From Myxococcota bacterium (GTDB lineage Bacteria > Myxococcota_A > UBA9042 > PHBI01 > JAWLBL01), in contig JAWLBL010000008.1 in the NCBI GenBank assembly GCA_041687695.1, positions 32,074-96,073 of the forward strand: a stretch of DNA of 64,000 nt, in the 5' to 3' direction. Positions 16,205 to 59,605 of this stretch are shown piece by piece (within the stretch, counting starts at the first letter, position 1; every line of letters starts with the position of its first letter). The notes beneath the pieces were generated by a model. That model was not told the DNA's origin. It searched no databases and saw only the letters and a program-made list of their open reading frames with translations. The translations under genes were made by a program, and so were the position numbers.

Positions 16205-16648
16205 GGACGCAGCATGAGCAGCCTGTAAGCCGAGTTCTGTCCCGACGGTCGGTCGCCCTCCCGCCGGCGATGGCCATTCATCTAGGCGACGGATTGCTCC
16301 GCCGCTCGAGCGATACTACCCGGGGGACGCGGACGGGCCGTCCGTGGCTTCCGCTCTCGCGGCCGCCAGCCCCACGATTGATCTTGCTCCAGGTGGGGTT
16401 TACCGACCCCCCAGGTCACCCTGGGCGGTCCGTGAGCTCTTACCTCACGCTTTCACCCTGACCTCCTGGGAGGCTCCTGTCGCCAGGATCCTCCGGGAGG
16501 CGGACTGCTCTCTGTGGCACTTTCCCTGGGGTCGCCCCCGCTGGCCGTTAGCCAGCACCATTGCCCTGTGGAGCTCGGACTTTCCTCCCGCCGCGGCGCC
16601 GTGAGACGCCCCGACCGGCGGCCATCCGGTCTACTCATGCTGCGAGCC
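16205..16648 (-). ncRNA. rnpB: RNase P RNA (bacterial type A)
   Basis: Minus strand has GGAGGAAAGTCCGAGCTCCACAGGGCA (P4/CR-I), P1 pairing GCAGCATGAG…CTCATGCTGC, and 3' region CTAGATGAATG…ACAGAACTCGGCTTA as in E. coli M1 RNA. Confidence 0.85.
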
Positions 16649-17647: not shown

Positions 17648-17720
17648 TGGGCCCACCTGGATTCGAACCAGGGACCAACCGGTTATGAGCCGGCGGCTCT
17701 CACCGCTGAGCTATAGGCCC
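17648..17720 (-). tRNA. tRNA with CAU anticodon; elongator-type with C4-G69/C5-G68, likely tRNA-Ile2 (lysidine, ileX-like) rather than tRNA-Met
   Basis: Minus strand GGGCCTATAGCTCAGCGGTGAGAGCCGCCGGCTCATAACCGGTTGGTCCCTGGTTCGAATCCAGGTGGGCCCA folds as cloverleaf (7-bp acceptor, TTCGAAT T-loop, anticodon loop CTCATAA); lies downstream of rpoD as ileX does in E. coli; CCA not encoded. Confidence 0.85.
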
Positions 17721-25879: not shown

Positions 25880-25978
25880 CGGGCGTTCGAAACGCGAAAT
25901 GCGCGGTCGCCGACCCGTTGTCCGGGGAGGCGCCGCGCCGTTCGCTGCAGGGGATGGGGAACCGAAAGGAGCCGGCGA

Positions 25979-26680
25979 TCAGCCGCGCATCACGTACTCG
26001 ACCGCCAGCTCGACCTCTTCGACCATGGCGCCGTTGCCCTTGCCGTCGAGGCGGAAGCTGGTCCACTTCATCGGCCAGGCGTCGATGAATCGATAGGTCG
26101 ACACGTAGGTCTGCCCATCGTCGGCGATGAGGTGGATGGCGCCGGTCTTGCGCGAGACCGAGCCGTCCATCAGCTCCTTGCACCAGTCCCAGAGCTTGGA
26201 GTTGGGCGTGTAGCCCTTGGTCAGCTTGATCGACCCGAACTTCTTCATGCCCGGGCGCTTCTTCGGGTACGGGTCCATGCTGTCGCGCCACTCGATGAGG
26301 TCGAACTCGACCGAGAGGCCGTCGCACTTCTGGAAGCGCCCCGCGTTCAGGCCGTCGATCTCGAGGACGAAGTTGAAGTCGCCCCAATGGTCGTCGACGC
26401 GGTTGTGCTCGCCCTTGCGCTCGAGCGGCGTGATCGTGACGCCCGGCGACTCGTGTCCGTTGGTCCCGCCGCTGGTGGTCGCCAGGTTCGTCTTGGTCAC
26501 GCCGCCGTGGTAGACGCCCGCGGTCCCGCCGTTCGTCGGAGAGAGCGTCGTCTTGGTCACGCCGCCGTGGTACACGCCCGTCGTCGGGACGCCCTTGGGG
26601 GCGCTACCCTGCGTCGGGACGAGCTTCGTCGTCGTCACGGATCGGCCGACCACCTTGTTCCATTGATCGCTGAATCCCAT
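25979..26680 (-). CDS. Phage T4 gp19-like tail-tube family protein (eCIS/Afp tube-like) with N-terminal repeat extension, orphan
   Basis: AGGAG RBS 7 nt upstream of ATG; C-terminal ~140 aa (NFVLEIDGLNAGRFQKCDGLSVEFDLIEWRD…GAIHLIADDGQTYVSTYRFIDAWPMKWTSFRLDGKGNGAMVEEVELAVEYV) matches conserved phage tail-tube (TIGR02241/PF06841-like) pattern; N-terminus carries duplicated GVYHGGVTKT(T/N)L segment; no sheath, baseplate or spike genes nearby. Confidence 0.7.
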   Translation of the reverse strand: MGFSDQWNKVVGRSVTTTKLVPTQGSAPKGVPTTGVYHGGVTKTTLSPTNGGTAGVYHGGVTKTNLATTSGGTNGHESPGVTITPLERKGEHNRVDDHWGDFNFVLEIDGLNAGRFQKCDGLSVEFDLIEWRDSMDPYPKKRPGMKKFGSIKLTKGYTPNSKLWDWCKELMDGSVSRKTGAIHLIADDGQTYVSTYRFIDAWPMKWTSFRLDGKGNGAMVEEVELAVEYVMRG

Positions 26681-26791
26681 CGGGTCCTGCTCCTATCCCC
26701 TGGAGAGTGGTCGGACAGCGCGCACGGATGGGAGGATAGATCGGGCCAGTTCCAGGATGCAAGCGGTCCAACCTCGTTGTATCGTGCGCGC

Positions 26792-27862
26792 ATGGATCAC
26801 CCTGTCGACACTGACGAAATCCGTCTGACCACCCTGGTCACGACCGGCGGTTGAGCGGCCAAGCTGGGTCCGGCGGACCTGGCCCGCGTCCTCGAACGCC
26901 TCCCGGTCGCGACCGACCCCCGCGTGCTCGTGGGGTTCGGTCACAGCGACGACGCCGCGGTGTATCTCGCGGCGCCGGATCTGGCCGTGGTGCAGTCCAT
27001 CGACATCTTCGGGCCCGTCGTCGACGACCCGTTCGACTTCGGGCGCATCGCGGCCGCCAACGCGCTCAGCGACCTGTACGCCATGGGCGTCGAGCCGGCG
27101 TTCGCCCTGGCCTTCGTCGGCTTCCCGATGGGCGATCTGCCCGAGAGCGTGCTCGAGGCGATCCTCGCCGGCGGCGCCGAGGCGTGTCGGCAGGCCGGCG
27201 CGTCGATCATCGGCGGCCACTCCATCCGCGACAAGGAGCCCAAGTACGGCCTCGCCGTCACCGGCTTCGGGCGCCCCGACGCGATCGTCACCAACGCGGG
27301 CGGCCGCCCGGGCGACGCCCTGGTCCTCACCAAGCCCCTGGGCTCGGGCATCCTGACCACCGCGCTCAAGCGCCAGCTGCTCGGCCCCGACGCCGTCCGC
27401 GACGTCACCGAGCTGATGGCCACCCTCAACCGCGGCGCTTCGGCCGCCGCGCGCGCCGCCGGCGTCCACGCGATGACCGACGTGACCGGCTTCGGCCTGC
27501 TGGGCCACCTCGCCGAGCTGGCGCGCGCCTCGGGCGTCGCCGCCGAGGTGGACGCCGCCGCCGTGCCGCTGCTGCCCGGCGTCCTGACCTTCGCGGGCTC
27601 CGGCGTCGTGCCGGGGGGCAGCCGCCGCAACCTCACCGATCTGGGCCCGGCCGTCCGGTTCGACGACGCGGTGCCCGAGCCGCTGCGCCTCGCGCTCGGC
27701 GACGCCCAGACCTCGGGCGGGCTGCTCATCGCCGTCGCCCCCGAGCGCCTCCCCGCGCTGCTGGCCGGCCTGGGCCCGCCCCACTCCCCGGCCGCCGCCG
27801 TCATCGGCCGCCTCGTCGCGCGGGCGCACCCCGACACCGCGCCCCTCATCCACGTCCGCTAG
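26792..27862 (+). CDS. selD: Selenide, water dikinase (selenophosphate synthetase), selenocysteine-containing form with in-frame TGA at 26852..26854
   Basis: ORF track starts at 26924 (GTG), but reading the same frame upstream gives MDHPVDTDEIRLTTLVTTGG-[TGA]-AAKLGPADLARVLERL… which aligns with E. coli SelD [25 protein letters not shown]; the TGA sits exactly at the catalytic Cys/Sec position; rest of protein (DDAAVY…, GGHSIRDKEPKYGLAVTG, MTDVTGFGLLGH) is typical SelD. Confidence 0.85.
26857..26884 (+). other. Candidate SECIS-like stem-loop immediately 3' of the selD UGA
   Basis: GGCCAagctgGGTCCggcGGACCTGGCC forms outer 5-bp and inner 5-bp stems starting 3 nt after the TGA; no fold computed. 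Confidence 0.3.
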
Positions 27863-27952: not shown

Positions 27953-30058
27953 ATGAGGACGAGACCGTGGGCGGCGGCGTCCGCCCTGGCCCTGCTGTTG
28001 GCGACCGCGCTGCACGCGTGCAGCGACGGGTCGAACCCGGGCCCCTGTGATCCCAGCGAGCCGTTCTGCCTGACCGAGGCGGCCGATCTCGAGGTCGAGC
28101 CGGTCGACCGCGTGGTCCTCGTGTCCAACGAGGCCGTGCCGCAGGGCGACTCGCTCGAGCAGGTCGTCCGCCTCGTCAATACCGGCGACGGCACCCTGCA
28201 GGTCAGCTCGGTGCAGCTCGAGTACGCGCCGCCCGCGGGCGCGTCCGATGGCGCCAAGCCCGCCTTCACCCTGGTCGATCCGGTCTTTTCGTTTCCGGCC
28301 AAGGTGCACACCCTCGGCGGCGCCGACTTCCCGCAGGGCGTCGAGCTGCGCGTCGTCTACACCCGCCCGCCGGACAGCGCGCCCCGCTCGGGCCGCCTGG
28401 TCATCAAGTCGAACGACCCGGTCGAGCCGACGGTCACCGTCGATCTCCGCGCCGAGGCGGGCTCGCCGGTCCTGACGACCGACAAGAAGACCCTCGACTT
28501 CAAGCTCGTCCCGATGGACGAGGCCCACAGCTTCAAGCTCAACCTCCTCAACATCGGCACGATGCCGCTCAACGTCAGCGGCTTCGCCCTCGCCGGCGAC
28601 ATCCGCTTCGGCGCCAAGGGGCCGGGCTTCGACATCGGCGGCGGGCCCAACAAGATCCGCTCGATCGATCTGCCGCAGGCCATCCCGGTCCCGGCCGGCG
28701 AGACCCGCAGCGTCGACGTGACCTTCGCCTCCGACGCCCCGACCCCCGCCGAAGGCGTCCTGCGCATCTTCTCGAACGACCCCGGCTCGGGCGCGACGGG
28801 CTACGAGGTCAACCTGGTGGCCAACAAGTCCGGCCCCTGCGTCCAGATCTCGCCACGCAACGTGCAGTTCGGCGGCAAGCTGGTCGGCTCGGTGGCCACC
28901 ATCGACGTCGAAGTCACCAGCTGCGGGTCCGAGCCGCTGAGGATCACGTCCTTCGCCATCGACCCGGCGTCCTCCTCGGACTTCGGCGTCAACACCAGCA
29001 AGCTCCCCGTCGGCACGCCCGAGGGGGGGCCGACCGAGGCCGCGCCCCTGGTGGTGCCGGTCAACGAGAGCGTCGTCATCGGCGTCGACTTCGTCCCGGA
29101 CGAGGTCAACCCCAAGGACGCCGACAACAAGCCCATCCCGGACACGGGGACGCTCCTCATCCAGTCGAACGCCTTCGAGTCGCTGGCGAAGATCCCGCTC
29201 AGCGGGGCCGGCGCGGAGAGCGAGTGCCCGGTGCCGGTCATCAAGGTCGCCGAGGGCGACGAGGTCATCCCGCAGACGGTCCTGCACCTCGACGGCCGGC
29301 AGAGCTATGCCGCTTTCGGCGGCATCGTCCAGTACCAGTGGTCCGTCGCGCAGCCCGACGGCAGCCAGTCGACGCTGGTCCCGTCGGTCACCGACCCGCA
29401 GCCGGTGTTCGAGGCCAACGTCGTGGGCGTGTACACGTTCAAGCTCGACGTCTGGGACGAGAGCAACACCAAGTCCTGCGAGTCCGCCGAGTACCAGGTC
29501 CTGGTGCAGCCCGATCAGGCCATCCACGTCGAGCTGACCTGGGTGACGCCCGGCGACGCCGACGAGACCGACACCGGCGAGGGCAAGGGCAGCGACATGG
29601 ATCTGCACTTCGCGCATCCCAACGCGACGGGCCCCGATCTGGACGGCGACGGCGCGCCCGACCCCTGGTTCGACGAGCAGTGGGACGCCTTCTGGTACAA
29701 CCCCAACCCCAACTGGGGCAGCTTCGACCCCAACGCCAACGACGACCCGTCGCTCGACCGCGACGACACCGACGGCGCCGGGCCCGAGAACCTGAACCTG
29801 GGCGTGCCCGAGGAGGTGGGCTACCGCGTCGCCGTGCACTACTGGGACGACCACGGCTTCGGCGACGCCCTCGCCTCGGTGCGCATCTACTCCTACGCGA
29901 CCCTCATCTACGAGCGGCTGGACGTGCCGCTCAACGAGCGCGACCTGTGGTGCGTCGGCGAGGTGCTGTGGCCCGAGGCCGAGGTCGTCGACTGCGGCGA
30001 CGTCGAGGGCGGGATCATCGTCCCCGACTACGTGAACCCGTTCTTCCTCCAGCCTTGA
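27953..30058 (+). CDS. Large secreted lipoprotein with multiple beta-sandwich/Ig-like segments
   Basis: 701 aa; signal peptide plus lipobox LLLATALHACS; repeated ~100-aa beta-rich segments; D/N-rich, probably Ca-binding, C-terminal region. Confidence 0.7.
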   Translation: MRTRPWAAASALALLLATALHACSDGSNPGPCDPSEPFCLTEAADLEVEPVDRVVLVSNEAVPQGDSLEQVVRLVNTGDGTLQVSSVQLEYAPPAGASDGAKPAFTLVDPVFSFPAKVHTLGGADFPQGVELRVVYTRPPDSAPRSGRLVIKSNDPVEPTVTVDLRAEAGSPVLTTDKKTLDFKLVPMDEAHSFKLNLLNIGTMPLNVSGFALAGDIRFGAKGPGFDIGGGPNKIRSIDLPQAIPVPAGETRSVDVTFASDAPTPAEGVLRIFSNDPGSGATGYEVNLVANKSGPCVQISPRNVQFGGKLVGSVATIDVEVTSCGSEPLRITSFAIDPASSSDFGVNTSKLPVGTPEGGPTEAAPLVVPVNESVVIGVDFVPDEVNPKDADNKPIPDTGTLLIQSNAFESLAKIPLSGAGAESECPVPVIKVAEGDEVIPQTVLHLDGRQSYAAFGGIVQYQWSVAQPDGSQSTLVPSVTDPQPVFEANVVGVYTFKLDVWDESNTKSCESAEYQVLVQPDQAIHVELTWVTPGDADETDTGEGKGSDMDLHFAHPNATGPDLDGDGAPDPWFDEQWDAFWYNPNPNWGSFDPNANDDPSLDRDDTDGAGPENLNLGVPEEVGYRVAVHYWDDHGFGDALASVRIYSYATLIYERLDVPLNERDLWCVGEVLWPEAEVVDCGDVEGGIIVPDYVNPFFLQP

Positions 30059-39589: not shown

Positions 39590-42500
39590 CTATTCGAACA
39601 TCTCCGAGTACTCGATCTGGATGCCCATGTACTGCCGCAGGCTCAGGTACTGGTCGCTCATCGCGTACATCACCAGATCCTTGAGCTTGTCGGCCTTCTT
39701 GAGCTTGGACGTGCCGGCGACCTCCTCGCGCAGCAGGTGCCCGGCCAGCTCGACGTCGTCACACACGAGCAGCGCCGCGTGGATGGCCGTCAGCTCGACC
39801 TGGCGATGCCACAGGCCGATGTGCGGCACCCGCCCGGACTGCTTCATCTCGGCGATGACCTGCGCGAGCTGCGTGCGGTTCTGCGGCGTGATGTCCTTGT
39901 CGAGCGCGGCGCGCGTCTCCCCGACCTGCTGCGCGATCTGCATCTTCAGCTCGTCGGGCATGTCCGCCTGCAGCTGCAGCTTGTAGCTCGGGTCGATGAG
40001 CGCCTCGGCCGCCATGAACATGATGTCGAGCTGCTCACGCTGGAACAGCGCCGCCATGATGTGCGTGTTGGTCAGGTACATCAGGCGCCGGGCGAGGTGG
40101 AACGCGAGGTCCTTTTCGCCCTTGCCCTGCAGCATGTCCGGCCCGATGGACAGGACCGGCGGCTGCGTGTCGAGGATCTCGATGCCCATGCGGGTCGAGC
40201 TGCGGTAGACCTCGGGCGGCTGCAGCCCGAGGATGCGGCAGACCGAGTTGATGACCGAGCAGATGAGCAGGCCCTCGCTCAGATCGATGCGGTCCTTCTT
40301 CTTGAGCCCGTGCTCCTTGAGCTGCTTGAGCGGCAGGCTCTTGTACAGGGACGCGTAGAGGATCGCGAAGACCTGCCCGAGGTACGGGTCCTCCTGCTGG
40401 CTGGCGACCAGCTGCGACATCGCCGTGGCGTCGACGATGCGGTTGGTCTCGGCCACCGCGGCCGACTGATGGTCGCGGTAGAACCGCTCCTCGTCCGGCT
40501 CGGCCCGGTTGAGCGCCACCAGCAGCCCGGCCATGACCCACGCCTTGTCGTAGGCCTTCATCCGCTTATAGAGCTCGACCAGCTTGTGGTAGCTGTCGAA
40601 GCGGTCCGGGTGCTGCCGGATGAGGTAGCGGTGCTCCTCGACGGCCTTGTCCAGCTGGTCCGGCGTCGACTCGTACAGCCCCGCCAGGATCTCGTGGATG
40701 GCCTCGTCGTCCGGCTTGATCTTCCGCGCCAGCTCGAACGCGCTGATGGCGTAGTCCGTGCGCTTGAGGCGCGAGCGGTAGATCTCGCCCAGGTTGCGGT
40801 AGAGCATGAAGTTCACCGCGCCGTACTTGGGCCAGCTGGCGCCCGCCTTCTGCACGCGCTGCAGCATGCGGCGGTAGTTCTGCTCGAGCGGCTTCCACTC
40901 CTTGGCGTGCGTCAGCAGCTCGTCGATGGCGCGGAACGCCTCGAGCTTCTCGATGTTGTAGTCCAGCGTCAGGTTCAAGTACTTGATGGCCGACTCGCGG
41001 TCACCGACCTCGTCGCGGTAGGTGACGGCCGCCGTGTAGGCCCAGGTGGACTTGCGCCCGGCGTCCTCCTCGATCTCGATGATCTTGTTGATCCACCGGA
41101 TCGCCTCGTCGAAGTTGCGCCGCTCGATGTGCACCTGCACCAGCTGCATCAGCGGCGCCTTCGAGAAGTTCCCGTAGCCGACGGCCTTCTGGTAGGCCTC
41201 GACGGCCTTGTCCGGCTGGCGCAGGTTGTCGCGGAAGATGTCGGCGATCTTCAGCTGGATGTTGAACTTCGCGAGCGGCTCGGACTTGAGCGCCAGCAGC
41301 TGCTGCATGTAGCTGATGGCCCCCGCCCAGTCGCCGTGCGCCTCGAGCACCTCGACGATGCGCTCGATGGCGCCCGCGTTGTTCGGCTGGTGCTGGATGA
41401 CCCGCGACAGGTACGTCTGCGCCACCGAGATGCGGCCCAGCTTCAGCGCGCTCTCGCCGAGGTTCAGGTACAGCAGGACGAAGTCCTCGTCGCTGAGCTC
41501 GGACCCGTAGGTGTCGATGACCTGCTGGTAGTAGCGCAGCGCCTCGGAGTAGTTCTGCTTCTTGAAGTGCAGCCGGGCGAGGCCCCGCAGCGTCTCCTTG
41601 TCGGGGCTCGCGTGCTCCACCGCGGCCGAGTACTCGTCGAGCGCGCGGTCGTCGTCGTAGACGGCCTCGGCGCACTGGCCCAGGCGCTTGTGCACCTGCG
41701 CCAGCCGCTCGCGGTCGCCGCGCGCGTCGAGCTTGTCGACCAGCACGTCGAGCAGCGGCATCGCCTTGGTCCAGTTCCGCGTCGCCATGTAGTGGTCGGC
41801 GAGCGGCCACAGCGTCTCCTCGGACTCCGGGTTGGCCTGGACCGACAGCTCGAGGTGCTCGAGGGCGCGGCCCTCGTCGTGCAGCTTGTCGCGGAACAGC
41901 GACGCCAGCTCGACGTGCACGTCGGCGCGCGCGACGTCGTCCTGCGCGTGCTGCAGCTTGTGCTCGAGGGTCTCGAGCACCAGATCGAAGCGCTCCTCGT
42001 AGCTGTACAGATCGATGAGCGCCTGCACCGGCTGCGGGTGTCCCGGCCACTCGGCCAGCGCCTGCTTGTAGTGCTCGGCCGCCCCGAAGGCGTCGTTCAG
42101 CTCGTCGCGCCGGACCGAGCCCTGCTCGCAGTGCAGCGCGAGCCGCTCCTCGTGGCCCGACTCCACCGCCAGCGTGCGGTCGAGCGTCCCGATGAGCTGC
42201 TCCCACAGCCCCTGCTCGCGGTACAGATCCCGCAGCGCGTCCAGCGCCGGCCGGTGCCCGGGCGCCTCGCTCAGCGCGCGCTCGTAGCTGCCGATGGCGC
42301 TGTCCAGATCGCCGATCTGGTCGCGGTAGACCGCCGCCATCGCCATCAGCGCCTGCGCCCGCTCCTCGGCGGTCTGCGCCACGCCGCGCTTCTTCTCGTA
42401 CAGGTCGACCAGATCGTCCCAGCGCGACGTCTCGGCGAAGATGCGCTCCAAGGCCTCGATGGCCTCGGCGTCGTCCGGCACGATGTACAGGATGCGCTGG

Positions 42501-45500
42501 AAGGCCTCGGCCGCCTGCTCGGCGTCCTTGAACACCTCCTGCTGCAGCAGGGCGATGTTGCGGCACGCCTCGACGCGCTGCTCGTCGTTGGTCGCCGCGC
42601 CGTAGCTGCGCTCGAAGACGTCGACCAGCTTCGCCCAGTCGTTGCGCTCGCCGTAGATGCCCTGCAGCGCCTCGATGGCCACCGCGTTGTTCGGGTCGAC
42701 CGCCAGGACATCCTCGTAGACGCCGATGGCCTCGTCGATCTCGCCCAGGTTGCCTTCGAGGATCTGCGCGACGCGCAGCTTCAGCTCGCTCTCGCGCTGC
42801 GGCTCGACCCGCGAGACCCGCTCGAGGACGTCGATGAGCGCGCGCCAGTCGCCGCGCTCGGTGTGCAGCCGCTCGAGCGCGCCGAGCGCCTCGCGGTTGC
42901 TCTCGTCGACCTCGCAGATGGCCTCGTACGCGCCGACGGCCCGCTCACGGTCGCCGATGTTGTGCTCGAAGACCTCGGCCGCGCTCGACAGCAGGACCAC
43001 CTTCTCCTGGTAGTCCATCGTCACGTAGCTGAGGCGCTGCAGCACGTCGACGAGCTTCTCGAACTGCTCCAGATCGATGTTCAGGTCGACCAGCGCGCGC
43101 AGCGCAGGCTCGCTGTCCTCGGCGTGCTCGAGCACGCGCTCGAAGTAGGCCGCGGCGCTCGCCGGGTCCTGCAGCTTGTCGCGCTGCACGTAGGCGGCCT
43201 TCAGCATCGCGTCGAGGGCCGCGTCCGGATCGAGGTGCTCGATGACCCGGTCGTAGATGGCCAGCATCTCGGGCCACAGGCCCGTCAGCTCGGCCAGCCG
43301 CGCCAGCTCGCTCAGGACGTGCGGCTCCTCGGGCGCCTCGTCGATGGCCGACTCGAGGACCATGAACGCCCCGTCGGCCTGGCCGAGCTTGTGCTCGTAG
43401 AGGCCGGCCAGCCGCTGGAGGTTCATCAGGCGATCTTCCATGTCGCCCAGATGCGCGTTGCGGCTCGTCAGCAGCTGCGCCAGATCCGCCCACTGCTCGA
43501 AGGCCTCGTAGATCGCCTCGAGCCGCTGGCTCGCCTCGACGTTGTCGGGGGCGTGCGTCAGGATCTCGACGTAGGTCCCGGCGGCGGCCGCCTGGTCCTG
43601 CAGGCGCTCCTCCTGGATGGACGCCATGTGCAGCCAGGTCTCGATCTGCTGCGCCGCGTCCTCGGTGTAGCCCAGCTTCACCCGGTACAGCTCGACCAGA
43701 TCCGCCCAGCGCTCCTCGGACTCGTACAGGTTCTCGAGGTTCTCGATGGCGTCGGGCGCCCCGGGGGCCAGCTCCAGCACCGCCCGCCACGCGTCGATGC
43801 CCGCGGGCCGGTCGCCCAGCGGCTCGGTCCGCAGCTCGGCCAGCTCGCGCCACAGCGCGACCTGCGCCTCGACGTCGTAGTGGCCGCTCTCGAGCCGCGC
43901 CTCGATGCACCCGGCCAGCGCCTCGTGCGCGTAGTTGTCGCGGTAGATGACGTGCAGCGCCTCGAGGGTCTCGGCGTCGAACGCGTCCTCGGCCCGCGCC
44001 TTCTCCCAGTACATCTGCGCCTGCAGCCCGTCCTCGAGCTGCTGCTGCCAGGTGCGGCCGATGCGCTTGAACAGATCCAGCCGCCGCGCGGCGTCGCCCT
44101 GGCCCATCGCCAGCTCGCGCTCGTACGCCTCGACCAGCCCGTTCCAGTCCTCCTGGCCCTCGCGCAGCCGCTGCAGCTGCTGGACGGCCTCGAAGCTCTG
44201 CGGCGTGACCGCGAGCACGTCCTCCCACAGGTTGATGGCGTCCTCGACCTTGCCGAGGCACACCTCGGCGATCTCGGCCATGTCCGCCATGTAGCCGGCG
44301 CGCTCGGCGTCGTCGCCCGTCGTCTCCGACAGCTGCTGGAGGATCTCGAACAGGGCGGGCCAGTTCTCGTCCTCGTGGTACATCGTGCGCAGCGCCTGCA
44401 GCGCCTCGCCGTGCGTGTCGTTGATGTCGAGCACGCGCTTCCAGGCGTCGATGGCGTCCTCGCGGCGCCCCAGGCGGTCGCGGTACAGCTCGGCGAGCCG
44501 CACCAGCAGCTTCATGCGCTCGTCGTCGAACTCGGCGACGTCGGCCTCGCGGGCCAGCACGCCCTCGAGATCCTCCCAGCGCTCGGCGGCGACGTAGATG
44601 CGGTCCAGCGCCTGCAGCGCCGGGAAGTTCTCGCCGTCCTGGCCCAGGATGAGCAGGTAGACGCGCTCGGCCTCGGCGATGTCACCCAGGCGATCGCGCG
44701 TGATGGCGGCCGCGCGGCCCCACAGCTCGACCCGGCGCTCGTCGTCCTGCACGGCGTCGGCGCCGTCCATCAGGATGACCTTCACCTCGTCCCAGCGGTC
44801 GGTCTCCTCGGCGAGCGTGCGCAGCTGGACCAGCAGGCCCTCGTCCTCGGGGTCGAGGCGGAAGGCGTGGCCGAACCAGGCGATGGCCTCGGGCTTGCTG
44901 CCCAGGCGCTCGAGGTTCAGCTCGGCCAGCTGCCGCATGATCTGCAGGCGGTCGAGCGGGTCCTCGAGGACCTCGAGCTTGAGCTCGAGCAGCCCGTGCA
45001 GCTCCTCCCAGGCCCCGCGGCCCGTGTAGATGGGCTCCAGGCGCTCGGCGATGTCCAGGCGGTGGACGCCCGCCACGTACAGGCGCTGCAGCTCGGCGAT
45101 CGCGTCCTCGGACTGCTCGTCGAGGTACAGGACCTCCATGTAGGCGTCGAAGGCCCCGTCGGTGTCCTCGAGGCAGGCCTCGCAGACCTGCGCGAGCTTG
45201 AAGAGGAAGCCCATCTTCTCGGCGGGCTCGGTCTGCGTCTCGATCTGCTGGCGCAGCACCTCGACCAGCGGCTCGTACTGGCCCTGGGCCTCGTACAGGG
45301 CGTGCAGCCGCGCCAGGACCTCCTGGTGATCCGGGTAGTCCTCGAAGATCTTCTTGTAGACGTCGGTCGCGCGCGCCGCGTCCTGGACGCGGTCCATCAG
45401 CAGCGCGCCGGTCTTGAGGCGCAGCCGCTGCGCGAGCAGCTCGTCGTCGGTGTCCTCGGCGCCGGCCGCGTACAGCGCGACCAGGGCCTCGATCATCTCG

Positions 45501-48500
45501 TGCTCGTCGGCCAGCCGCTCGAGCTCGGCCACCGTCGTCGGGTGCTGCCGGTCCAGCTCGAAGGCGCGCGCCTGCGCCTCGAAGGCCCGCGTCGCGTCGA
45601 ACAGGCGCTTTTCGGCCAGCTGCGCCATCTGGTGCAGCGTCTCGACCTTGCGGAACGGGTCGTCCGACTGGTGCGCCGCGATGATCTCGTACTGCTGCCA
45701 CAGCGGCTCGAAGGCGTTCATCTCGGCCAGGACCGGGCGCAGCACCTCGAAGGCGGCCTCGCGCTCGTCGCGGCTCTCGATGATGGCCTCGAGCGACGCG
45801 ATGGCGCCCTCGTGGCCGGGCACGCGGCCCAGCAGCTCGCCGTAGGCGGCGATGGCCTGGCGCGGATCGCCCAGGCGCTCGTCGTCCTCGAACAGCTTGG
45901 CGACGCGGAACTGCGCCTCGGCCCAGCCGGCCTCGTCGAGCAGCGCCTGCATCTTCTGCAGGACGTCCAGCAGGTTGAACCAGTCCTCCTGCCGCGTGTA
46001 CAGCCCGTCCAGCTCGTGCAGGGCGCCCAGCTCGGCCGGATCCCACTCGAGGATCATCCGCCAGGTCATGACGGCGTCGTCGAGGCTCTCCTGCTTGCCG
46101 GCCTGCACGTGGCCCATGAGCGACGCGTAGTACTTGCGCGTGTCGAGGTCGGCCGCCCGCTCGATCTTCTGGCGGTATACGCCGATGAGCTGCTCCCAGT
46201 CCTCGACCCGCTCGTACAGCCCCTCGAGGGCCTCGAGGGCCAGATCGCCCGTCGTGTCGAGGTTATGCAGCGTCTCGTAGATCTCGATGGCGCTCTCGGG
46301 CGCGTCGAGCACGGTCGCGCTCAGCTCGCCGGCCTCGGCGTACAGGGCCTGCTTGTCGGCCATGTCGCCGACCATCGGCGCCTTGACCAGCAGCATCTCG
46401 ACCAGCTTGTCCGAGCGCTCGAGCTGGCGGTACAGCGCGACGAGGGCCTCGATGGCCGGCATGTCGCCCGGATCGAGCTCGAGGATGGCGCGCAGGTGCG
46501 CCTCGGCGCCCTCGACGTCGTGCGTCGTGTCGCGGCACAGGCTGGCGATGGTGCGGTGCGTCTCTCGGCGCCGGTAGTCGTCGTCGATGTCGTCGACCAG
46601 CCCCTTGAGCGACAGCACCAGCTCGCCGTGGTTGCCCAGCACGTCGGCGAGGCGCAGCAGGTGCGACAGCGTCCCCTCGCTGGCCGGATCGAGCGCGGCG
46701 GCCGCCAGGTAGTGCTCGAAGGCGGCGTCGGGGCGCTCGCCCATCGCCTCGTACAGATCGGCGATCTTGTAGCGCCAGTCGACCTTCTCGAAGACGTCGT
46801 CCGAGGCGGCCTCGCGGACCGTGTAGACGTCGATGAGCTTCACCCAGTCGCCGACGCGGTCGTAGTAGGGCTGCAGGATGGGCGCGATGGCCGGGGCGTG
46901 CTCGGGCGCCTCGAACAGGCGCTCCAGGGCCTCGACCGTGCCCATGTGCTCGGGCTCGAGGGTCAGGTTCTCGGCGTAGAGCGAGATGGCCGTCGCCACG
47001 TCCTCGAGCACGGTCTCGTGCAGGCTGGCGAGGCGCGTCTGGTAGACCACGTGCCGCGGCACGTCGCCGCGGACCAGGTTGATGGCGTCCTCGAGGATCT
47101 GCGCCAGCTCGGTCCACTGCTCGGTCGCCGTGTACAGCTCGTCGAGCCGCAGCAGGGCGTCCATGTTGCCGGGGACCAGGTCCAGCGCCTCGCGCGCCGC
47201 GACCACGGCCTCGTCGTGCTTGCCAAGCCCGTCGCGCAGCAGATCGCTGGTCCGGAACAGGTACTGCAGCTTCTGCTCGACGTCCTGGCTCAGCTCGATC
47301 TTGCGGCGGTAGATGTCGAGCAGATCCTCGGAGCGGTCGAGCGCCGCGTAGATGCCCTCGAGCGCGTCGATGGCCTCCTTGTGCTCGGGCTCCTCGTCGA
47401 GGACCTTGTGGTAGAACTGCCGCGCGTGCTCGAGGTCCTGCTCGCGGCGGTGGTAGGCGCGCGCCACCTCGAGCTTGATCGCCAGGCGCGCCAGCGGGTC
47501 GCCCGCCTCCTCGGCGTGCTCGGCGTACAGCGCGATGAGGGCCGGCCAGCGCTCGAGCTGCGCGGTCAGGCGCTGGAACTCGCCGCGCACGTCGGCGCGG
47601 TGCGGCTCGTGGGCGAACCAGCGGCCGTAGGTGCGCCAGGCGAGATCCAGGTCGTCCAGCGAGCTCTTGTACAGATCGGCCAGGCGCTCGAGCAGCGAGA
47701 CCTGCTCGTAGACGTCCTCGTCGGCCGCCGCGGCCAGCAGCTGGATCTCGAAGACCTCGGCCAGGCGCGCCCACTCGGCGCGGTCGCGGTAGACCGGCTC
47801 GAGGATGCGGGTGATGCGCAGGCGCTCGTCCTCGTCGGCGAGCAGCTCTTCCAGGCGCGCGACCGACTCGAGGTGCTGCGCGTCGTGACGCAGCGCCGCC
47901 TCGTAGTGATCGACCGCGACGCGCACGCCCTCGGCGTCGGGCTGCACGCCGTAGGCCAGCATGCCCAGCTCGCACTCGAGGTCGGCCAGGACCACGGCGT
48001 GCGCGCCCTGGGCGGCCAGGATGTCGCGCTTGCGCTCGAGGACCTCGCGCAGCGGCGCCCACCGCTGCTGCTCGAGCTGGATGGCGATGAGCGCGTCGTG
48101 GACCCGCGTCTCGTCCGGGAAGTCGTCCAGCATCTCCCGGTAGATGGCCTCGGCCTCCTCGGCCTGCCCCAGCGCCTCGCGCCAGACCGCCGCCAGCTGG
48201 AACAGCGTCTCCTTGCGCTCGTCGCCGCCCTGCGCGATGCGCAGCTGCTTGTCGTAGACGACGATCAGCTGGTCCCACGCGCCCAGGTCCCGGTACAGCC
48301 CCTCGAGCGCGGCCAGCGCGGCCCGGTTGCCGTCGTCGAGCTCGACGACGCGGTTGAAGAAGGTCAGCGCCGTCTCGGCGAGGCCCACGTGGTCGCGGTA
48401 GACGTGGCCGATCTCCAGCAGGACGCCGACCTTGTGGCCCTCGTCCTCGATGAGGTCGACCGTCTCCTGCAGGACCATCACGTAGCTGTCCCAGTTGCCC

Positions 48501-50410
48501 GACGCCTCGGCGAGGCGGCGCAGCTCGGGGTGCAGCGACACGGCGTTCGGCGACTCCTGGACCGCCTGCACGTAGGCGAAGAAGGCCGAGTCGACGTCCG
48601 AGAGGTGCTGCTCCTGGACCTCGGCCAGCGCGAGCAGGAGCTGCTGGCGCTCGGCGCGGTCCTCGGTCGCCTCGAGCACGATGTCGTAGACGTTGGGCAG
48701 CTCGGCCCACGACCCGACCTCGCGGTAGATCGGCACCATCATGCGCGCGGCGCCCGCGTGGCGCGGCTCGATCTCGAGCACGGACTCGAGGTTCTTGACG
48801 GCGCGGCGCGTGTCGCCCAGCTCGTCTTGCCACACCGCCGCCGCCTTGAAGAGCAGCGTCGTCGTCTCGGCCGGATCCTCGAGGCTCTTGGCCTGCGACT
48901 CGAGCGTGCGGACCCAGTCCTGCGCCGAGGCGTAGGTCCGGAAGAACCACTCGAGGTTGTCCCAGTCGCGCTCGGCCGTGTACTTCTTCTTGAGTTCGGC
49001 CTGCGCCTTGCGGTGCTCGGCGTCGAGCTCGAGCACGCGGCGCCAGACCTCGGCGGCGCGCGCGTCGTCCTCGAGGCGCGACGAGTAGACCTGGCCCAGC
49101 TTCTCGAGCAGCGCCACCTTGTCGGGGGCGAAGTCGCTCAGCTCGGCGCGGCGGTCGAGGATGCGGGCGAGGTCCTCGAAGCTCTTCTCGCGCTCGTAGA
49201 GCGTCTCGAGCTCACCCAGGGCCTCGGCGTGGTCGGGGTCGATGGTGAGGACCCGCTCCCACAGCGCGATGGGCGTCTGCGGCTTGCGGATGCGCTCGGA
49301 GGCCAGCTTGGCCAGCTTGATGTAGGCCGCGTCGCGATCGGCGCCCTCGGGCAGCAGGCCGACCTCGCGCTCGGCGACGACGATGTAGCTGTCCCAGTCG
49401 TGCCGGCTCTCGTAGATCTCTTTGAGGACGTCGATGCCCTTGCGGTTGGTCGGATCGATCTCGAGGATGGCCTCGTAGCTCTTGATGGCCTCGCTCGAGT
49501 TGTTGAACTTGTCGAGCATGATGGTGGCGACGCGCTCGTGCAGCGCGATCACCTGCGCCGTTTCGGCCTCGTGCTCGATCTTCTGCTTGAGCACCTTGAC
49601 CAGATCCGGCCACCGCTTCATCTCGTCGTACTCGGCGGCGAGCGCGTCGAGCGCCTGCGTGTTGCCGGGCTCGAGCTCGAGGATCGCCTGCCAGGACCCG
49701 ACCACCTTCGACGCCGCGTTGAGGTGCGTCTTGAAGATGTCGATCATCTCGAGGTGCAGCGCGATGGCCTCGCTCACCTGATCCGCGCCGAGGCGGCCCA
49801 GGTTGTTCTTGAGCAGATCCACCATCGCGTGCCACTTGCCGACCTCGGCGAACAGGCGCCGCAGCGCGCCCTCGGCCTCGAGATCGTTCGGGTCCGCGGT
49901 GTACACGGCCTGCCAGAAGCCGACCGCCTTGTCCGGCTTGCCCCGCTCCTCGGCGAGGCGGGCGAGGACGCGCTTGCACTCGACCGGGTCCTCGATGCCG
50001 CCCATCTGCGGCTCGCTCAGGAACTGCTCGAGGCGCCGCCAGTTGTCCTGCTCGACGTAGAAGTCGATGTAGAACTCGCGCAGCAGCGACGGATCGCTGG
50101 GCGCGCTCTTCATCTTGCGGAACATCATCTCGGCCTTCTGGGCCGAGTCGAACGCCTTCCACAGCAGCAGGCCGTTCTGGTAGTGCAGGTAGGACGCGAC
50201 GTCGTCGTCCTTGGCCGTGCGCGCCTGCTGCGCCAGGATCTGGAACAGGCGGCTGGCCTCGCCCTCGGGCGCCCACTCGGGCAGCGAGGCGTAGAGGCTC
50301 CCCAGGGTGCCCTGGTCGTTCTCCGTGACCAGGTGTTTCACCAACGCTTCGAAAGCCTTGTGATCCGTAGGGTTGGCTTTGAAGGCTTCGAAGAGCTCGG
50401 TAGTGCTCAT
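39590..50410 (-). CDS. Giant tetratricopeptide-repeat protein (3606 aa; ~85 degenerate 38-40-aa TPR-like repeats plus a ~400-aa non-repeat C-terminal domain)
   Basis: Uninterrupted 10.8-kb ORF with diverse, protein-like composition and high GC3; recurring pattern A…W.RVLE.DP.N.EAL..L..LY……W..L; the co-located plus-strand 3597-aa ORF is the R/L/V/G-rich antisense shadow. Confidence 0.85.
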   Translation of the reverse strand: MSTTELFEAFKANPTDHKAFEALVKHLVTENDQGTLGSLYASLPEWAPEGEASRLFQILAQQARTAKDDDVASYLHYQNGLLLWKAFDSAQKAEMMFRKMKSAPSDPSLLREFYIDFYVEQDNWRRLEQFLSEPQMGGIEDPVECKRVLARLAEERGKPDKAVGFWQAVYTADPNDLEAEGALRRLFAEVGKWHAMVDLLKNNLGRLGADQVSEAIALHLEMIDIFKTHLNAASKVVGSWQAILELEPGNTQALDALAAEYDEMKRWPDLVKVLKQKIEHEAETAQVIALHERVATIMLDKFNNSSEAIKSYEAILEIDPTNRKGIDVLKEIYESRHDWDSYIVVAEREVGLLPEGADRDAAYIKLAKLASERIRKPQTPIALWERVLTIDPDHAEALGELETLYEREKSFEDLARILDRRAELSDFAPDKVALLEKLGQVYSSRLEDDARAAEVWRRVLELDAEHRKAQAELKKKYTAERDWDNLEWFFRTYASAQDWVRTLESQAKSLEDPAETTTLLFKAAAVWQDELGDTRRAVKNLESVLEIEPRHAGAARMMVPIYREVGSWAELPNVYDIVLEATEDRAERQQLLLALAEVQEQHLSDVDSAFFAYVQAVQESPNAVSLHPELRRLAEASGNWDSYVMVLQETVDLIEDEGHKVGVLLEIGHVYRDHVGLAETALTFFNRVVELDDGNRAALAALEGLYRDLGAWDQLIVVYDKQLRIAQGGDERKETLFQLAAVWREALGQAEEAEAIYREMLDDFPDETRVHDALIAIQLEQQRWAPLREVLERKRDILAAQGAHAVVLADLECELGMLAYGVQPDAEGVRVAVDHYEAALRHDAQHLESVARLEELLADEDERLRITRILEPVYRDRAEWARLAEVFEIQLLAAAADEDVYEQVSLLERLADLYKSSLDDLDLAWRTYGRWFAHEPHRADVRGEFQRLTAQLERWPALIALYAEHAEEAGDPLARLAIKLEVARAYHRREQDLEHARQFYHKVLDEEPEHKEAIDALEGIYAALDRSEDLLDIYRRKIELSQDVEQKLQYLFRTSDLLRDGLGKHDEAVVAAREALDLVPGNMDALLRLDELYTATEQWTELAQILEDAINLVRGDVPRHVVYQTRLASLHETVLEDVATAISLYAENLTLEPEHMGTVEALERLFEAPEHAPAIAPILQPYYDRVGDWVKLIDVYTVREAASDDVFEKVDWRYKIADLYEAMGERPDAAFEHYLAAAALDPASEGTLSHLLRLADVLGNHGELVLSLKGLVDDIDDDYRRRETHRTIASLCRDTTHDVEGAEAHLRAILELDPGDMPAIEALVALYRQLERSDKLVEMLLVKAPMVGDMADKQALYAEAGELSATVLDAPESAIEIYETLHNLDTTGDLALEALEGLYERVEDWEQLIGVYRQKIERAADLDTRKYYASLMGHVQAGKQESLDDAVMTWRMILEWDPAELGALHELDGLYTRQEDWFNLLDVLQKMQALLDEAGWAEAQFRVAKLFEDDERLGDPRQAIAAYGELLGRVPGHEGAIASLEAIIESRDEREAAFEVLRPVLAEMNAFEPLWQQYEIIAAHQSDDPFRKVETLHQMAQLAEKRLFDATRAFEAQARAFELDRQHPTTVAELERLADEHEMIEALVALYAAGAEDTDDELLAQRLRLKTGALLMDRVQDAARATDVYKKIFEDYPDHQEVLARLHALYEAQGQYEPLVEVLRQQIETQTEPAEKMGFLFKLAQVCEACLEDTDGAFDAYMEVLYLDEQSEDAIAELQRLYVAGVHRLDIAERLEPIYTGRGAWEELHGLLELKLEVLEDPLDRLQIMRQLAELNLERLGSKPEAIAWFGHAFRLDPEDEGLLVQLRTLAEETDRWDEVKVILMDGADAVQDDERRVELWGRAAAITRDRLGDIAEAERVYLLILGQDGENFPALQALDRIYVAAERWEDLEGVLAREADVAEFDDERMKLLVRLAELYRDRLGRREDAIDAWKRVLDINDTHGEALQALRTMYHEDENWPALFEILQQLSETTGDDAERAGYMADMAEIAEVCLGKVEDAINLWEDVLAVTPQSFEAVQQLQRLREGQEDWNGLVEAYERELAMGQGDAARRLDLFKRIGRTWQQQLEDGLQAQMYWEKARAEDAFDAETLEALHVIYRDNYAHEALAGCIEARLESGHYDVEAQVALWRELAELRTEPLGDRPAGIDAWRAVLELAPGAPDAIENLENLYESEERWADLVELYRVKLGYTEDAAQQIETWLHMASIQEERLQDQAAAAGTYVEILTHAPDNVEASQRLEAIYEAFEQWADLAQLLTSRNAHLGDMEDRLMNLQRLAGLYEHKLGQADGAFMVLESAIDEAPEEPHVLSELARLAELTGLWPEMLAIYDRVIEHLDPDAALDAMLKAAYVQRDKLQDPASAAAYFERVLEHAEDSEPALRALVDLNIDLEQFEKLVDVLQRLSYVTMDYQEKVVLLSSAAEVFEHNIGDRERAVGAYEAICEVDESNREALGALERLHTERGDWRALIDVLERVSRVEPQRESELKLRVAQILEGNLGEIDEAIGVYEDVLAVDPNNAVAIEALQGIYGERNDWAKLVDVFERSYGAATNDEQRVEACRNIALLQQEVFKDAEQAAEAFQRILYIVPDDAEAIEALERIFAETSRWDDLVDLYEKKRGVAQTAEERAQALMAMAAVYRDQIGDLDSAIGSYERALSEAPGHRPALDALRDLYREQGLWEQLIGTLDRTLAVESGHEERLALHCEQGSVRRDELNDAFGAAEHYKQALAEWPGHPQPVQALIDLYSYEERFDLVLETLEHKLQHAQDDVARADVHVELASLFRDKLHDEGRALEHLELSVQANPESEETLWPLADHYMATRNWTKAMPLLDVLVDKLDARGDRERLAQVHKRLGQCAEAVYDDDRALDEYSAAVEHASPDKETLRGLARLHFKKQNYSEALRYYQQVIDTYGSELSDEDFVLLYLNLGESALKLGRISVAQTYLSRVIQHQPNNAGAIERIVEVLEAHGDWAGAISYMQQLLALKSEPLAKFNIQLKIADIFRDNLRQPDKAVEAYQKAVGYGNFSKAPLMQLVQVHIERRNFDEAIRWINKIIEIEEDAGRKSTWAYTAAVTYRDEVGDRESAIKYLNLTLDYNIEKLEAFRAIDELLTHAKEWKPLEQNYRRMLQRVQKAGASWPKYGAVNFMLYRNLGEIYRSRLKRTDYAISAFELARKIKPDDEAIHEILAGLYESTPDQLDKAVEEHRYLIRQHPDRFDSYHKLVELYKRMKAYDKAWVMAGLLVALNRAEPDEERFYRDHQSAAVAETNRIVDATAMSQLVASQQEDPYLGQVFAILYASLYKSLPLKQLKEHGLKKKDRIDLSEGLLICSVINSVCRILGLQPPEVYRSSTRMGIEILDTQPPVLSIGPDMLQGKGEKDLAFHLARRLMYLTNTHIMAALFQREQLDIMFMAAEALIDPSYKLQLQADMPDELKMQIAQQVGETRAALDKDITPQNRTQLAQVIAEMKQSGRVPHIGLWHRQVELTAIHAALLVCDDVELAGHLLREEVAGTSKLKKADKLKDLVMYAMSDQYLSLRQYMGIQIEYSEMFE

Positions 50411-57567: not shown

Positions 57568-57802
57568 GGCTGGGCGCCTCCGTACCGAGCAAGCGCTCGG
57601 AAAGTCAATGATTTCAAGGTTGAACGGAAGTGGCGCGGAAGCTACCCGCCCCCCCGGTGGGTGTCAAACCGAAACCACGATGGGCGCGGCGGCCGCGTCG
57701 CGGCGGGTTTCGCCAAAACGAAACGGGCGCCAGCGGCCCGGAGCCGCGCCCCCAGTGGCCGCGATGGCCCTCCAGACGCCCTGCCGGCTGGGCCGCGGGC
57801 CA

Positions 57803-57831
57803 TTGACCCCGCCGCCCGCGCCGCCTATAAG
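57803..57831 (+). promoter_or_regulatory. Sigma70-like promoter for the OmpA-TSP3 gene (-35 TTGACC, 17 nt, -10 TATAAG)
   Basis: cattgaccccgccgcccgcgccgccTATAAGcgc about 65 nt upstream of ATG 57895. Confidence 0.4.
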
Positions 57832-57894
57832 CGCCCGGTTGCAACGAGGCGGATGGCCGCGGCGCGTCGCGAGCCACCCTGCGCGGAGTGCGTG

Positions 57895-59154: not shown

Positions 59155-59264
59155 CGTTCGAGCCTGCGGTGGCCCGCGGCGGCGCGCTCGGAGATGCCTC
59201 CGGCGCGCCGCTCGCGCATCCGGGCCCGGCCGCCAGGACCGAACGCCCGTTCTGGAAAACCCCT

Positions 59265-59293
59265 TTGACATCGCGGGCCCGGCGCCCTATGCC
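59265..59293 (+). promoter_or_regulatory. Candidate sigma70-like promoter for ACP-AOS operon (-35 TTGACA, 17 nt, -10 TATGCC)
   Basis: cctTTGACAtcgcgggcccggcgcccTATGCCggt about 65 nt upstream of ACP ATG. Confidence 0.35.
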
Positions 59294-59358
59294 GGTGCCC
59301 TCCCGAGGCCGCCCTCCGGGCGCGGCCTCTCTCCCCGAGACAGCGAGCGGAAAGAGAC

Positions 59359-59595
59359 ATGGCGAACGTGGACGTCGTGGCGCTGTTCAAGCGCGTCGCC
59401 TCCGAGGTCGAGCGCAAGGACTTCTCGAACATCACCCGCGACACGCGCGTGACCGACCTGGGCGTGGACTCCGTCACGATGATGGAGATCGTCGGGATGA
59501 TGGAGGACGAGCTCGGCATCCAGATCCCGGACACCAAGCTGTCGGGGCTGCAGACCGTGGGCGACATCGAGCGCGTCGTCCTCGAGCGCCTGTAG
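59359..59595 (+). CDS. Acyl carrier protein (stand-alone, likely dedicated to the adjacent alpha-oxoamine synthase)
   Basis: 78 aa; phosphopantetheine-attachment motif DLGVDSV. Confidence 0.85.
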   Translation: MANVDVVALFKRVASEVERKDFSNITRDTRVTDLGVDSVTMMEIVGMMEDELGIQIPDTKLSGLQTVGDIERVVLERL

Positions 59596-59605
59596 GGATC
59601 GGGCG

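Follow-up and report, generated by a model that had tools for sequence, protein, structure and literature searches.

The closest described relatives of the gene reported here are the major tube subunits of contractile injection systems (CISs), including extracellular ones (eCISs): Afp1 of the Serratia Afp, Pvc1 of the Photorhabdus PVC, Alg1 of AlgoCIS, All3324 of the Anabaena tCIS and Cis1a of Streptomyces, all within the 140–150 aa known for such tubes. The gene itself lies in a 64,000-nt stretch of a Myxococcota genome (contig JAWLBL010000008.1 of assembly GCA_041687695.1), hereafter the window, and encodes a 233-aa protein of the same Pfam/TIGRFAM family and fold, for which those five subunits are the best matches in the Protein Data Bank (PDB). 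Like them, it has a full-length tube domain with an N-arm, a long hairpin and a single helix; unlike them, it stands outside a CIS cluster, at a fixed core-genome position, carries an N-terminal extension of 92 aa that is predicted to be disordered, and has a hairpin-tip loop and two cysteines (C119 and C167) peculiar to its own family. We refer to it as an orphan tube gene. Its relatives occupy the same position in about fifteen other organisms, and our favoured, although tentative, reading is that it supplies a specialised extra tube subunit to a CIS encoded elsewhere in the genome.

A tube gene set apart from its machine has a precedent among type VI secretion systems (T6SSs), where orphan Hcp genes—hcp1 and hcp2 of Pseudomonas fluorescens MFE01 and the Hcp paralogs of avian pathogenic Escherichia coli—likewise lie away from the main cluster, with the machine elsewhere in the genome lineage. 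Specialisation of the tube is the role proposed for such paralogs (PMC5256989, PMC7286023, PMC5874247), and orphan hcp genes serve a single T6SS (PMC5256989, PMC7286023). The Myxococcota protein differs in belonging to another family (12.4 bits against a threshold of 25.8 for the T6SS Hcp/TssD model PF17642, E = 0.15, not significant) and in having no adjacent effector–immunity pair, and a function in trans is one that we infer. In ‘evolved’ Hcp (Hcp-ET), too, a tube subunit bears extra polypeptide that would travel with the tube; there the extension is a C-terminal folded toxin domain, whereas here it is N-terminal, disordered by prediction, low in complexity, hypervariable and sometimes absent. 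The Afp5/Pvc5/CIS5 adaptor and the Afp7/CIS_tube initiator share the tube-fold superfamily and form single specialised CIS rings; unlike these, the orphan falls below the cut-off of the CIS5 family adaptor equivalog (NF053770; 64.1 bits against 260), is 21% identical to the Afp5-like tube of its clade and has no LysM domain. Phage T4 gp19, namesake of the Pfam family, has the same core fold but is a distant match (Foldseek rank 19, 14% identity), and the orphan has no phage context.

The main features of the gene, in window coordinates, are as follows.

25979..26680, minus strand: tube-family gene encoding 233 aa, N-terminally extended; stop codon at 25979–25981
25982..26404, minus strand: tube domain, residues 93–233 (PF06841, TIGR02241, AlphaFold2, Foldseek, PDB profile)
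26405..26680, minus strand: N-terminal extension, residues 1–92, with a short helix motif MGFSDQWNKVVG, then a Thr/Gly-rich linker predicted to be disordered and four VTxTxL motifs (AlphaFold2 and homolog alignment)
26462..26581, minus strand: tandem duplication, 2 × 60 nt (20 aa each), copies 26462–26521 and 26522–26581, 82% identical (repeat search)

Assignment of the tube domain rests on sequence profiles and on structure comparison. The open reading frame (ORF) runs for 233 codons from an ATG, and within it the Pfam model PF06841 (Phage_T4_gp19) aligns to residues 101–230 at E = 7.6e-31 (107.1 bits, cut-off 28.2), spanning positions 2–133 of the 134-position profile; TIGR02241 scores 90 bits against a cut-off of 62.4, and a PHROG tail-tube family matches the protein too. 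An earlier note on this DNA, made from the sequence alone, had claimed a tail-tube homolog, and these profile searches uphold that claim; the protein is Afp1/Pvc1-like. In an AlphaFold2 model built on 25 homologs, residues ~101–233 reach a predicted local distance difference test score (pLDDT) of 76–90 and follow the order strand, long hairpin, one helix and four strands; the recognisable elements are the conserved N-arm RRxHD, two long beta-hairpin strands, one alpha-helix (LWDWC) and the C-terminal strands. Foldseek against the PDB returned Alg1 (7adz) first, then Pvc1, Anabaena All3324, Afp1 and Streptomyces Cis1, each with a probability of 1.00; T4 gp19 also reached 1.00, but both it and Hcp ranked far below the eCIS tubes. 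A sequence profile run against PDB chains gave the same order (7adz, E = 2.6e-20), and the domain is therefore a complete Afp1/Pvc1/Alg1-type major tube subunit rather than an Afp5- or Afp7-type adaptor.

The orphan family has invariant signatures of its own, GAFQKCDG, DSMDPYPR, KLTKG and LWDWC. Two of these hold the cysteines C119 (in QKCDG) and C167 (in LWDWC), with codons at about 26324–26326 and 26180–26182, which are nearly invariant in the main orphan clade; at the same positions the cluster-encoded tubes carry V and R, and a second orphan clade partly lacks the cysteines. The pair might be joined in a disulfide or belong to a metal or redox site.

Alignment to tubes of 143–145 aa begins at R93, so that the extension comprises 92 aa (about 95 in the earlier estimate). 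It is predicted to be disordered save for a short helix at residues 3–11, with pLDDT below 50 over residues 11–20 and 42–100. The two 60-nt copies encode TGVYHGGVTKTTLSPTNGGT and AGVYHGGVTKTNLATTSGGT, and the degenerate motif VTxTxL occurs four times in the extension; Tandem Repeats Finder with default scoring reported nothing in the tube gene and missed the duplication. An internally duplicated extension, as first described, is therefore present, and so are the GVYHGGVTKT(T/N)L repeats singled out at that time, but these are no feature of the family: they belong to a recent, local and lineage-specific duplication within a hypervariable tail.

Across homologs the extension varies from 0 to 124 aa. 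It is absent from three 144-aa orthologs at the same locus (L008, L013 and L015; L and P numbers denote our collected loci and protein matches), acidic in some orthologs, with a net charge down to −17, and Thr/Ser/Gly-rich with repeated [RK]xVTxTxL-like motifs in the window protein, P0002, P0018, L016 and L017. In L014, L019, L023, L025, L026 and P0025 it is basic and contains a hydrophobic 19-mer (Kyte–Doolittle >2), flanked by basic residues on both sides, which makes the positive-inside rule ambiguous; the window protein has neither a signal peptide nor a transmembrane segment, its Kyte–Doolittle maximum over 19 residues being 0.11. Most family members share a short motif at the N-terminus, M-x-[FY]-[DN]-x-[AS]-[FWY], which among all ORFs of the fetched loci was found in tube genes only. 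The tail is thus hypervariable and a hallmark of the family, yet not essential to it.

A protein search yielded 36 homologs, and a pattern scan of species-representative genomes yielded 15 loci, all from metagenome-assembled genomes (MAGs) of uncultured Myxococcota or ‘Deltaproteobacteria’; the window protein itself has an exact match on NCBI contig JAWLHM010000004.1 (assembly GCA_041690335.1). Synteny was assessed by tblastn of the window proteins on the fetched loci together with gene tables. The order hydantoinase, HD, two amidohydrolases, ~700-aa PKD/Ig lipoprotein, tube gene (divergent from the lipoprotein gene and convergent with priA), priA and, further on, dnaG and rpoD is common to about fifteen other organisms, even though their RpoD proteins are only ~75% and their PriA proteins 53–65% identical to those of the window. 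The divergently transcribed lipoprotein gene is kept in all syntenic loci:

27953..30058, plus strand: 701-aa predicted lipoprotein, N-terminus MRTRPWAAASALALLLATALHAC..., with PKD and ASH/HYDIN-type Ig domains (Pfam)

Its adjacency to the tube gene is preserved in L002–L005, L008–L009, L012–L014 and L016–L022, and survives a rearrangement on the priA side in L005 and L017; the lipoprotein is a possible partner of the tube protein. A second paralog clade (L023, L025 and L026) has a conserved housekeeping neighbourhood of its own, with PLD, TerB, thiolase, FadB and Sel1 before the tube gene and a metallophosphoesterase, a Ser/Thr kinase and CotH after it. Two MAGs, PHBI01 and SBGO01, carry both orphan types, and ortholog L022 lies on a complete chromosome, OW818691.1.

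A distance tree groups the orphans in a single clade and keeps the cluster-encoded tubes outside it. Ratios of nonsynonymous to synonymous substitution rates (dN/dS) between close pairs were 0.08–0.27 in the tube domain and 0.29–0.53 in the tail; deep-pair values (window against L012 or L016, ~0.8) were discarded, as dS is compressed where GC content at third codon positions (GC3) is ~0.95 and the tails cannot be aligned. The tube domain is thus under purifying selection and, given the same gene order in about fifteen other assemblies and dN/dS well below 1, the orphan is a vertically inherited working gene and not a phage remnant.

The gene also looks equipped for expression, in agreement with the native codon usage and good ribosome-binding site (RBS) reported for it at the outset. 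GC at codon positions 1/2/3 is 0.56/0.46/0.95, the pattern of the clear genes of the window (overall GC 72%), and orthologs have an RBS comparable to that of the window gene. The gene is monocistronic, converging on priA, which ends at 25879, and diverging from selD. Three further features flank it.

26690..26694, minus strand: Shine–Dalgarno AGGAG, 9-nt spacer to the ATG (RBS scan)
26710..26727, minus strand: alternating purine–pyrimidine element CCGTGCGCGCTGTCCGAC, ~45 nt upstream of the ATG, conserved
25970..25984, minus strand: weak terminator-like hairpin overlapping the stop codon of the tube gene (consensus scan, weak evidence)

The purine–pyrimidine element, (C/T)GTGTG(T)GCGC(G)CTG, occurs 40–47 nt upstream of the gene in L002, L005, L012, L016 and L017 and 75–98 nt upstream in L008, L013, L015 and L020, just downstream of −10-like boxes, and is kept although the adjoining coding tail is hypervariable. 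It is missing upstream of the tube gene in the clade L014/L018/L019/L021/L022, and a search for a regulon around it found no enrichment in the window (12 matches against 14 expected by chance). The element may be a putative operator or 5′-leader element. A sigma-70 promoter scan found no site.

Homologs of 145 aa, ~47% identical to the orphan, do sit in CIS clusters, alongside Pvc16_N, two sheath genes, a second tube gene and CIS_tube. A profile of the cluster sheaths returned thousands of matches, the best 120 of them 79–99% identical and several named Myxococcota. Two sheath matches mapped to MAGs that also hold orphans. In PHBI01 the CIS cluster lies on PHBI01000019.1 and the orphans L014 and L026 on contigs 25 and 40; in JACKFB01 the cluster lies on JACKFB010000005.1 and the orphan L013 on contig 24. 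The gene order in the two clusters is Pvc16_N, sheath, a 143-aa tube (tube143), a 123-aa protein, DUF6760, sheath, a second tube (158 or 166 aa), one or more large proteins (1762 aa in PHBI01; in JACKFB01 a call of 557 aa that follows a gap), CIS_tube with LysM, and onward. An orphan is thus accompanied by a complete-looking CIS elsewhere in the genome in both of the related MAGs in which this could be checked. The orphans are 41–47% identical to the Afp1-like tube143 (~21% to the Afp5-like tube), their tube domain is collinear with the cluster tubes save for a single one-residue gap, and the RRxHD N-arm and LWxW helix are kept.

These clusters change how the word ‘solitary’, applied to the tube protein by the earlier note, should be read: it is true of the locus, but of the genome it probably is not, since PHBI01 and JACKFB01 each have a CIS cluster with tubes of its own on another contig. 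The accompanying suggestion of a domesticated, CIS-independent protein accordingly loses its place as the default and becomes one possibility among several.

The Myxococcota CIS cluster (L035/L036, L038 and L006/L007/L027) has a sheath 80–83% identical across many MAGs, and its chromosomal surroundings (PMT_2, CHAT) are conserved. In the marine representative L027 the cluster seems to end after a 392-aa gene, with gp25, VgrG, baseplate and ATPase genes not recognisable nearby, and parts of that cluster may be dispersed. Cluster tubes of marine Myxococcota were among the most highly expressed genes of these organisms in a seamount study (PMC11937823); those tubes are encoded in clusters and are not orphans, and only such cluster-encoded Myxococcota tubes were found in the literature.

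The tube fold is also found well beyond the orphans. A profile search over 1.84 billion cluster representatives gave 5755 matches, 58 of them at E ≤ 1e-30, and many top matches have N-terminal extensions of 20–380 aa; extensions of 40 aa or longer occur in at least 35 of the 99 top clusters that could be located, and a Sec signal peptide or lipobox in about 8–11 top clusters (e.g. P0097, P0113, P0136). PF06841 proteins combining such a signal with extra domains (Kazal, DUF5667, ASH/HYDIN Ig or DUF4214) were seen in P0082, P0085, P0097, P0109, P0113, P0115, P0126, P0136, P0140, P0141 and P0158; in P0085 the additions are DUF5667 and Kazal domains, in P0158 an ASH/HYDIN Ig domain is fused with CIS_tube and two PF06841 domains, and one case reaches 1943 aa with three tube-type domains. 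An apparent operon at L010:5124–9886 encodes a 655-aa outer-membrane-beta-barrel-like protein (signal peptide; C-terminal ...ATLEVAW) and, after it, two N-extended tube proteins, the first of 251 aa with an amphipathic-helical tail and the second of 624 aa with a Gly/Ser/Pro-rich repeat tail of ~490 aa. By their sequences, the exported proteins point to non-canonical uses of the fold.

How might the orphan work? On the reading we favour, the tube gene of the clade’s CIS would have been duplicated and the copy moved to a core-genome position beside priA, where it would have gained a fast-evolving, disordered N-terminal tail. Its domain would still form Hcp-like hexameric rings, and in the CIS that is encoded elsewhere in the genome these rings would supply a minor, specialised layer, not the bulk of the tube. 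The tail, in the tube lumen or at the tube end, could then serve as built-in cargo, as a plug or as a tether, the last of these recalling relatives that have a hydrophobic, possibly membrane-binding segment. The parts of this scheme that we infer are ring formation—the default expectation for a tube domain—the joining of the rings to the CIS and what the tail does.

A subunit acting in trans is favoured by the family and fold of the protein, by the completeness of its domain and its 41–47% identity to the cluster tubes, by the marks of a real and vertically inherited gene, by the separate orphan clade, by the CIS clusters in PHBI01 and JACKFB01 and by the strong conservation of that CIS; three further considerations point the same way. 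In AlgoCIS 22 layers span 90.2 nm and the lumen measures 3.6 nm (PMC8894135), and from these dimensions the lumen per ring amounts to ~41,700 Å3, against ~74,500 Å3 needed by six 92-aa tails; a sheathed homopolymer therefore cannot hold the tails in its lumen, which leaves a minor or terminal layer or else a sheath-less assembly. Disorder at the N-terminus is also a trait of known CIS cargos (PMC8894135), and orphan Hcp offers the precedent described above. On balance we give a specialised extra subunit working in trans with the clade’s CIS a little less than an even chance of being right.

Several observations weigh against it. The source genome’s own CIS was not seen within the 64 kb examined, and no CIS gene was ever adjacent to an orphan within ±10 kb of ~20 loci, the paralog clade included. 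The CIS cluster already encodes Afp1-, Afp5- and Afp7-like tube-type proteins. In the tube fold the tip of the beta2–beta3 hairpin mediates ring–ring contacts; this tip is nearly invariant DSMDPYPR in the orphans and DGDDLTLR in the cluster tubes (two of eight consensus positions identical), a difference that could mean that stacking on the CIS tube has been lost in the orphans. The tails do not resemble toxins and, at 0–124 aa, are lacking altogether in the three short same-locus orthologs. Finally, there are hydrophobic segments in some relatives and Sec signal peptides or lipoboxes in other PF06841 proteins, so that the tube fold is also used beyond the reach of a cytoplasmic sheath.

Some of the same evidence suits a CIS-independent exaptation, in which the tube fold would serve as a ring-forming or short-tube structural protein without sheath or baseplate, at the cytoplasmic membrane or the envelope, perhaps with the divergent PKD/Ig lipoprotein, and with the N-terminal helix, the linker and, in relatives, the hydrophobic segment as a tether. 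At no locus is the orphan linked to CIS genes, and it has stayed at one core-genome position over deep divergence; the paralog clade, too, has housekeeping neighbours (PLD, TerB, FadA/B, Sel1, metallophosphoesterase, Ser/Thr kinase). Its signatures are specific to the family and invariant, six relatives carry hydrophobic 19-mers, and adjacency to the lipoprotein outlasts rearrangement on the priA side, although gene order in this clade generally holds over tens of kilobases, so that this adjacency may mean little. N-extended PF06841 proteins make up a wide class, some of them with a Sec signal peptide or lipobox; L010 places two behind an apparent outer-membrane beta-barrel gene and P0158 joins an ASH/HYDIN Ig domain to tube domains, but Ig domains are promiscuous fusion partners. 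Set against this, the window protein lacks a signal peptide and a transmembrane segment, identity of 41–47% and full collinearity with a working CIS tube suggest the same assembly constraints, and a CIS is present in both related MAGs checked. We regard exaptation as rather unlikely but credible, and as the foremost rival; we are just as doubtful of its more specific form, in which the orphan would be an exapted core ring protein, tethered to the membrane or envelope by its fast-evolving disordered tail, within a large and essentially undescribed class of N-extended PF06841 proteins. Those members of the class that are lipidated or exported by Sec could not assemble within a cytoplasmic sheath.

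Less probable again is a regulator of assembly. Here an Afp1-like subunit with a bulky disordered tail would cap growing tubes or sequester subunits, and so control the length, number or timing of the CIS without being delivered. Retention of the tube fold and N-arm alongside a different stacking-loop sequence would fit, as would the steric incompatibility of the tail with a sheathed homopolymer, and the separate monocistronic locus with its conserved upstream element suggests separate regulation. Tail-less orthologs at the same locus (L008, L013 and L015), however, imply that the tail cannot be the essential inhibitory part, and the CIS cluster already encodes a cap (Pvc16_N), which makes this role improbable in our view.

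A prophage or eCIS relic, a misassembly or a decaying, functionless pseudogene has next to no chance of being correct: although the family name is phage-derived and a decayed cassette could leave a lone tube gene, the window holds 64 kb free of phage or mobile-element genes, GC3 is native, every ortholog has an intact ORF preceded by an RBS, dN/dS lies well below 1 and the position is identical in about fifteen independent assemblies. That recurrence of gene order in assemblies from different studies rules out the misassembled prophage fragment that the earlier note had named as a possible refutation, and the synteny and selection results together refute the remnant.

Family and fold, then, are already known; what appear to be undescribed are an Afp1-type paralog that a whole clade keeps at one core-genome locus, the hypervariable tail of that paralog, and tube-domain proteins with extensions or export signals as a wider class. 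Surveys of CISs and eCISs define systems by gene clusters and so miss tube paralogs outside them, whereas this orphan is inherited as stably as its housekeeping neighbours across an uncultured Myxococcota clade with a strongly conserved CIS. Should it act in trans, the principle of orphan and evolved Hcp would extend from the T6SS to Afp/PVC-type systems, and tube-borne N-terminal tails would offer a natural route for loading or anchoring, of relevance to the engineering of PVC-like delivery vehicles. Should it be independent of a CIS, it would be a clean case of a phage structural fold taken into core cell biology, and hundreds of extended or secreted tube-domain proteins would be flagged as an unexplored family.

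The surroundings of the gene are of housekeeping type throughout. Codon statistics called 44 genes across positions 1–64000, all annotated with Pfam, and among them there is no gene for a sheath, baseplate, spike, terminase, integrase or capsid, so that the absence of CIS and prophage genes first claimed for the neighbourhood extends to the whole window. They include a TonB-dependent receptor, xseB, tlyA, valS, a response regulator, rpoD, dnaG, priA and selD; a hydantoinase/oxoprolinase, two amidohydrolases, RNase T, rsmI, a beta-lactamase-fold protein and an LD-carboxypeptidase; a 3606-aa TPR protein, a patatin, a TetR regulator, an acyl-AMP ligase, OmpA and an acyl carrier protein (ACP) with an aminotransferase; and glyoxalase II, a pseudopilin and an FKBP. 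PADLOC, with its models of known anti-phage defence systems, found no match for the tube protein or two of its neighbours.

The neighbouring selD (26792–27862, plus strand) starts at 26792, not 26924, and has an in-frame TGA, read as selenocysteine (Sec), at 26852–26854; with this start, the divergent intergenic region between tube gene and selD is only 111 bp long. From the ATG at 26792 the product reads MDHPVDTDEIRLTTLVTTGG-TGA-AAKLGPADL..., in frame with the AIRS/AIRS_C body, and the Sec falls at the catalytic Cys position of SelD; ORF callers that start at 26924 lose this N-terminus. The selD product is thus very probably a selenoprotein itself, to judge from its reading frame. A hairpin ~11 nt after the UGA was no better than in shuffled sequence (z = −0.5).

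Divergence of the tube gene from selD, part of the original description, is real in the window, but the adjacency is peculiar to this genome: only here does selD, of the Sec type, stand inserted between the tube gene and the PKD lipoprotein gene, and it is missing there from the syntenic loci. A second, unrelated context is L025:10683–12851, where a Pyr_redox_2::SelD fusion of the Cys type (CGGCAAKLG) lies directly downstream of the paralog and is again missing from the syntenic loci. The recurrence of selD beside a tube-like gene may be coincidence or may reflect a real link.

Elsewhere in the window, Rfam at gathering thresholds identified only an RNase P RNA and one tRNA, both far from the tube gene: the former is of class A (16211–16637, minus strand, 243 bits), the latter lies at 17648–17720 (minus strand), and the pair is situated between a CT398-like gene and rpoD. 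The 3606-aa ORF (39590–50410, minus strand) consists almost wholly of TPR-type repeats, with a GC3 of 0.98 and a GC content at second codon positions of 0.36. At 55768–60967 the acyl-AMP ligase, the OmpA-family protein, a stand-alone ACP (59359–59595) and a class I/II aminotransferase (59606–60967) are grouped, and the placing of an ACP beside such an aminotransferase is reminiscent of lipid synthesis of the serine-palmitoyltransferase type.

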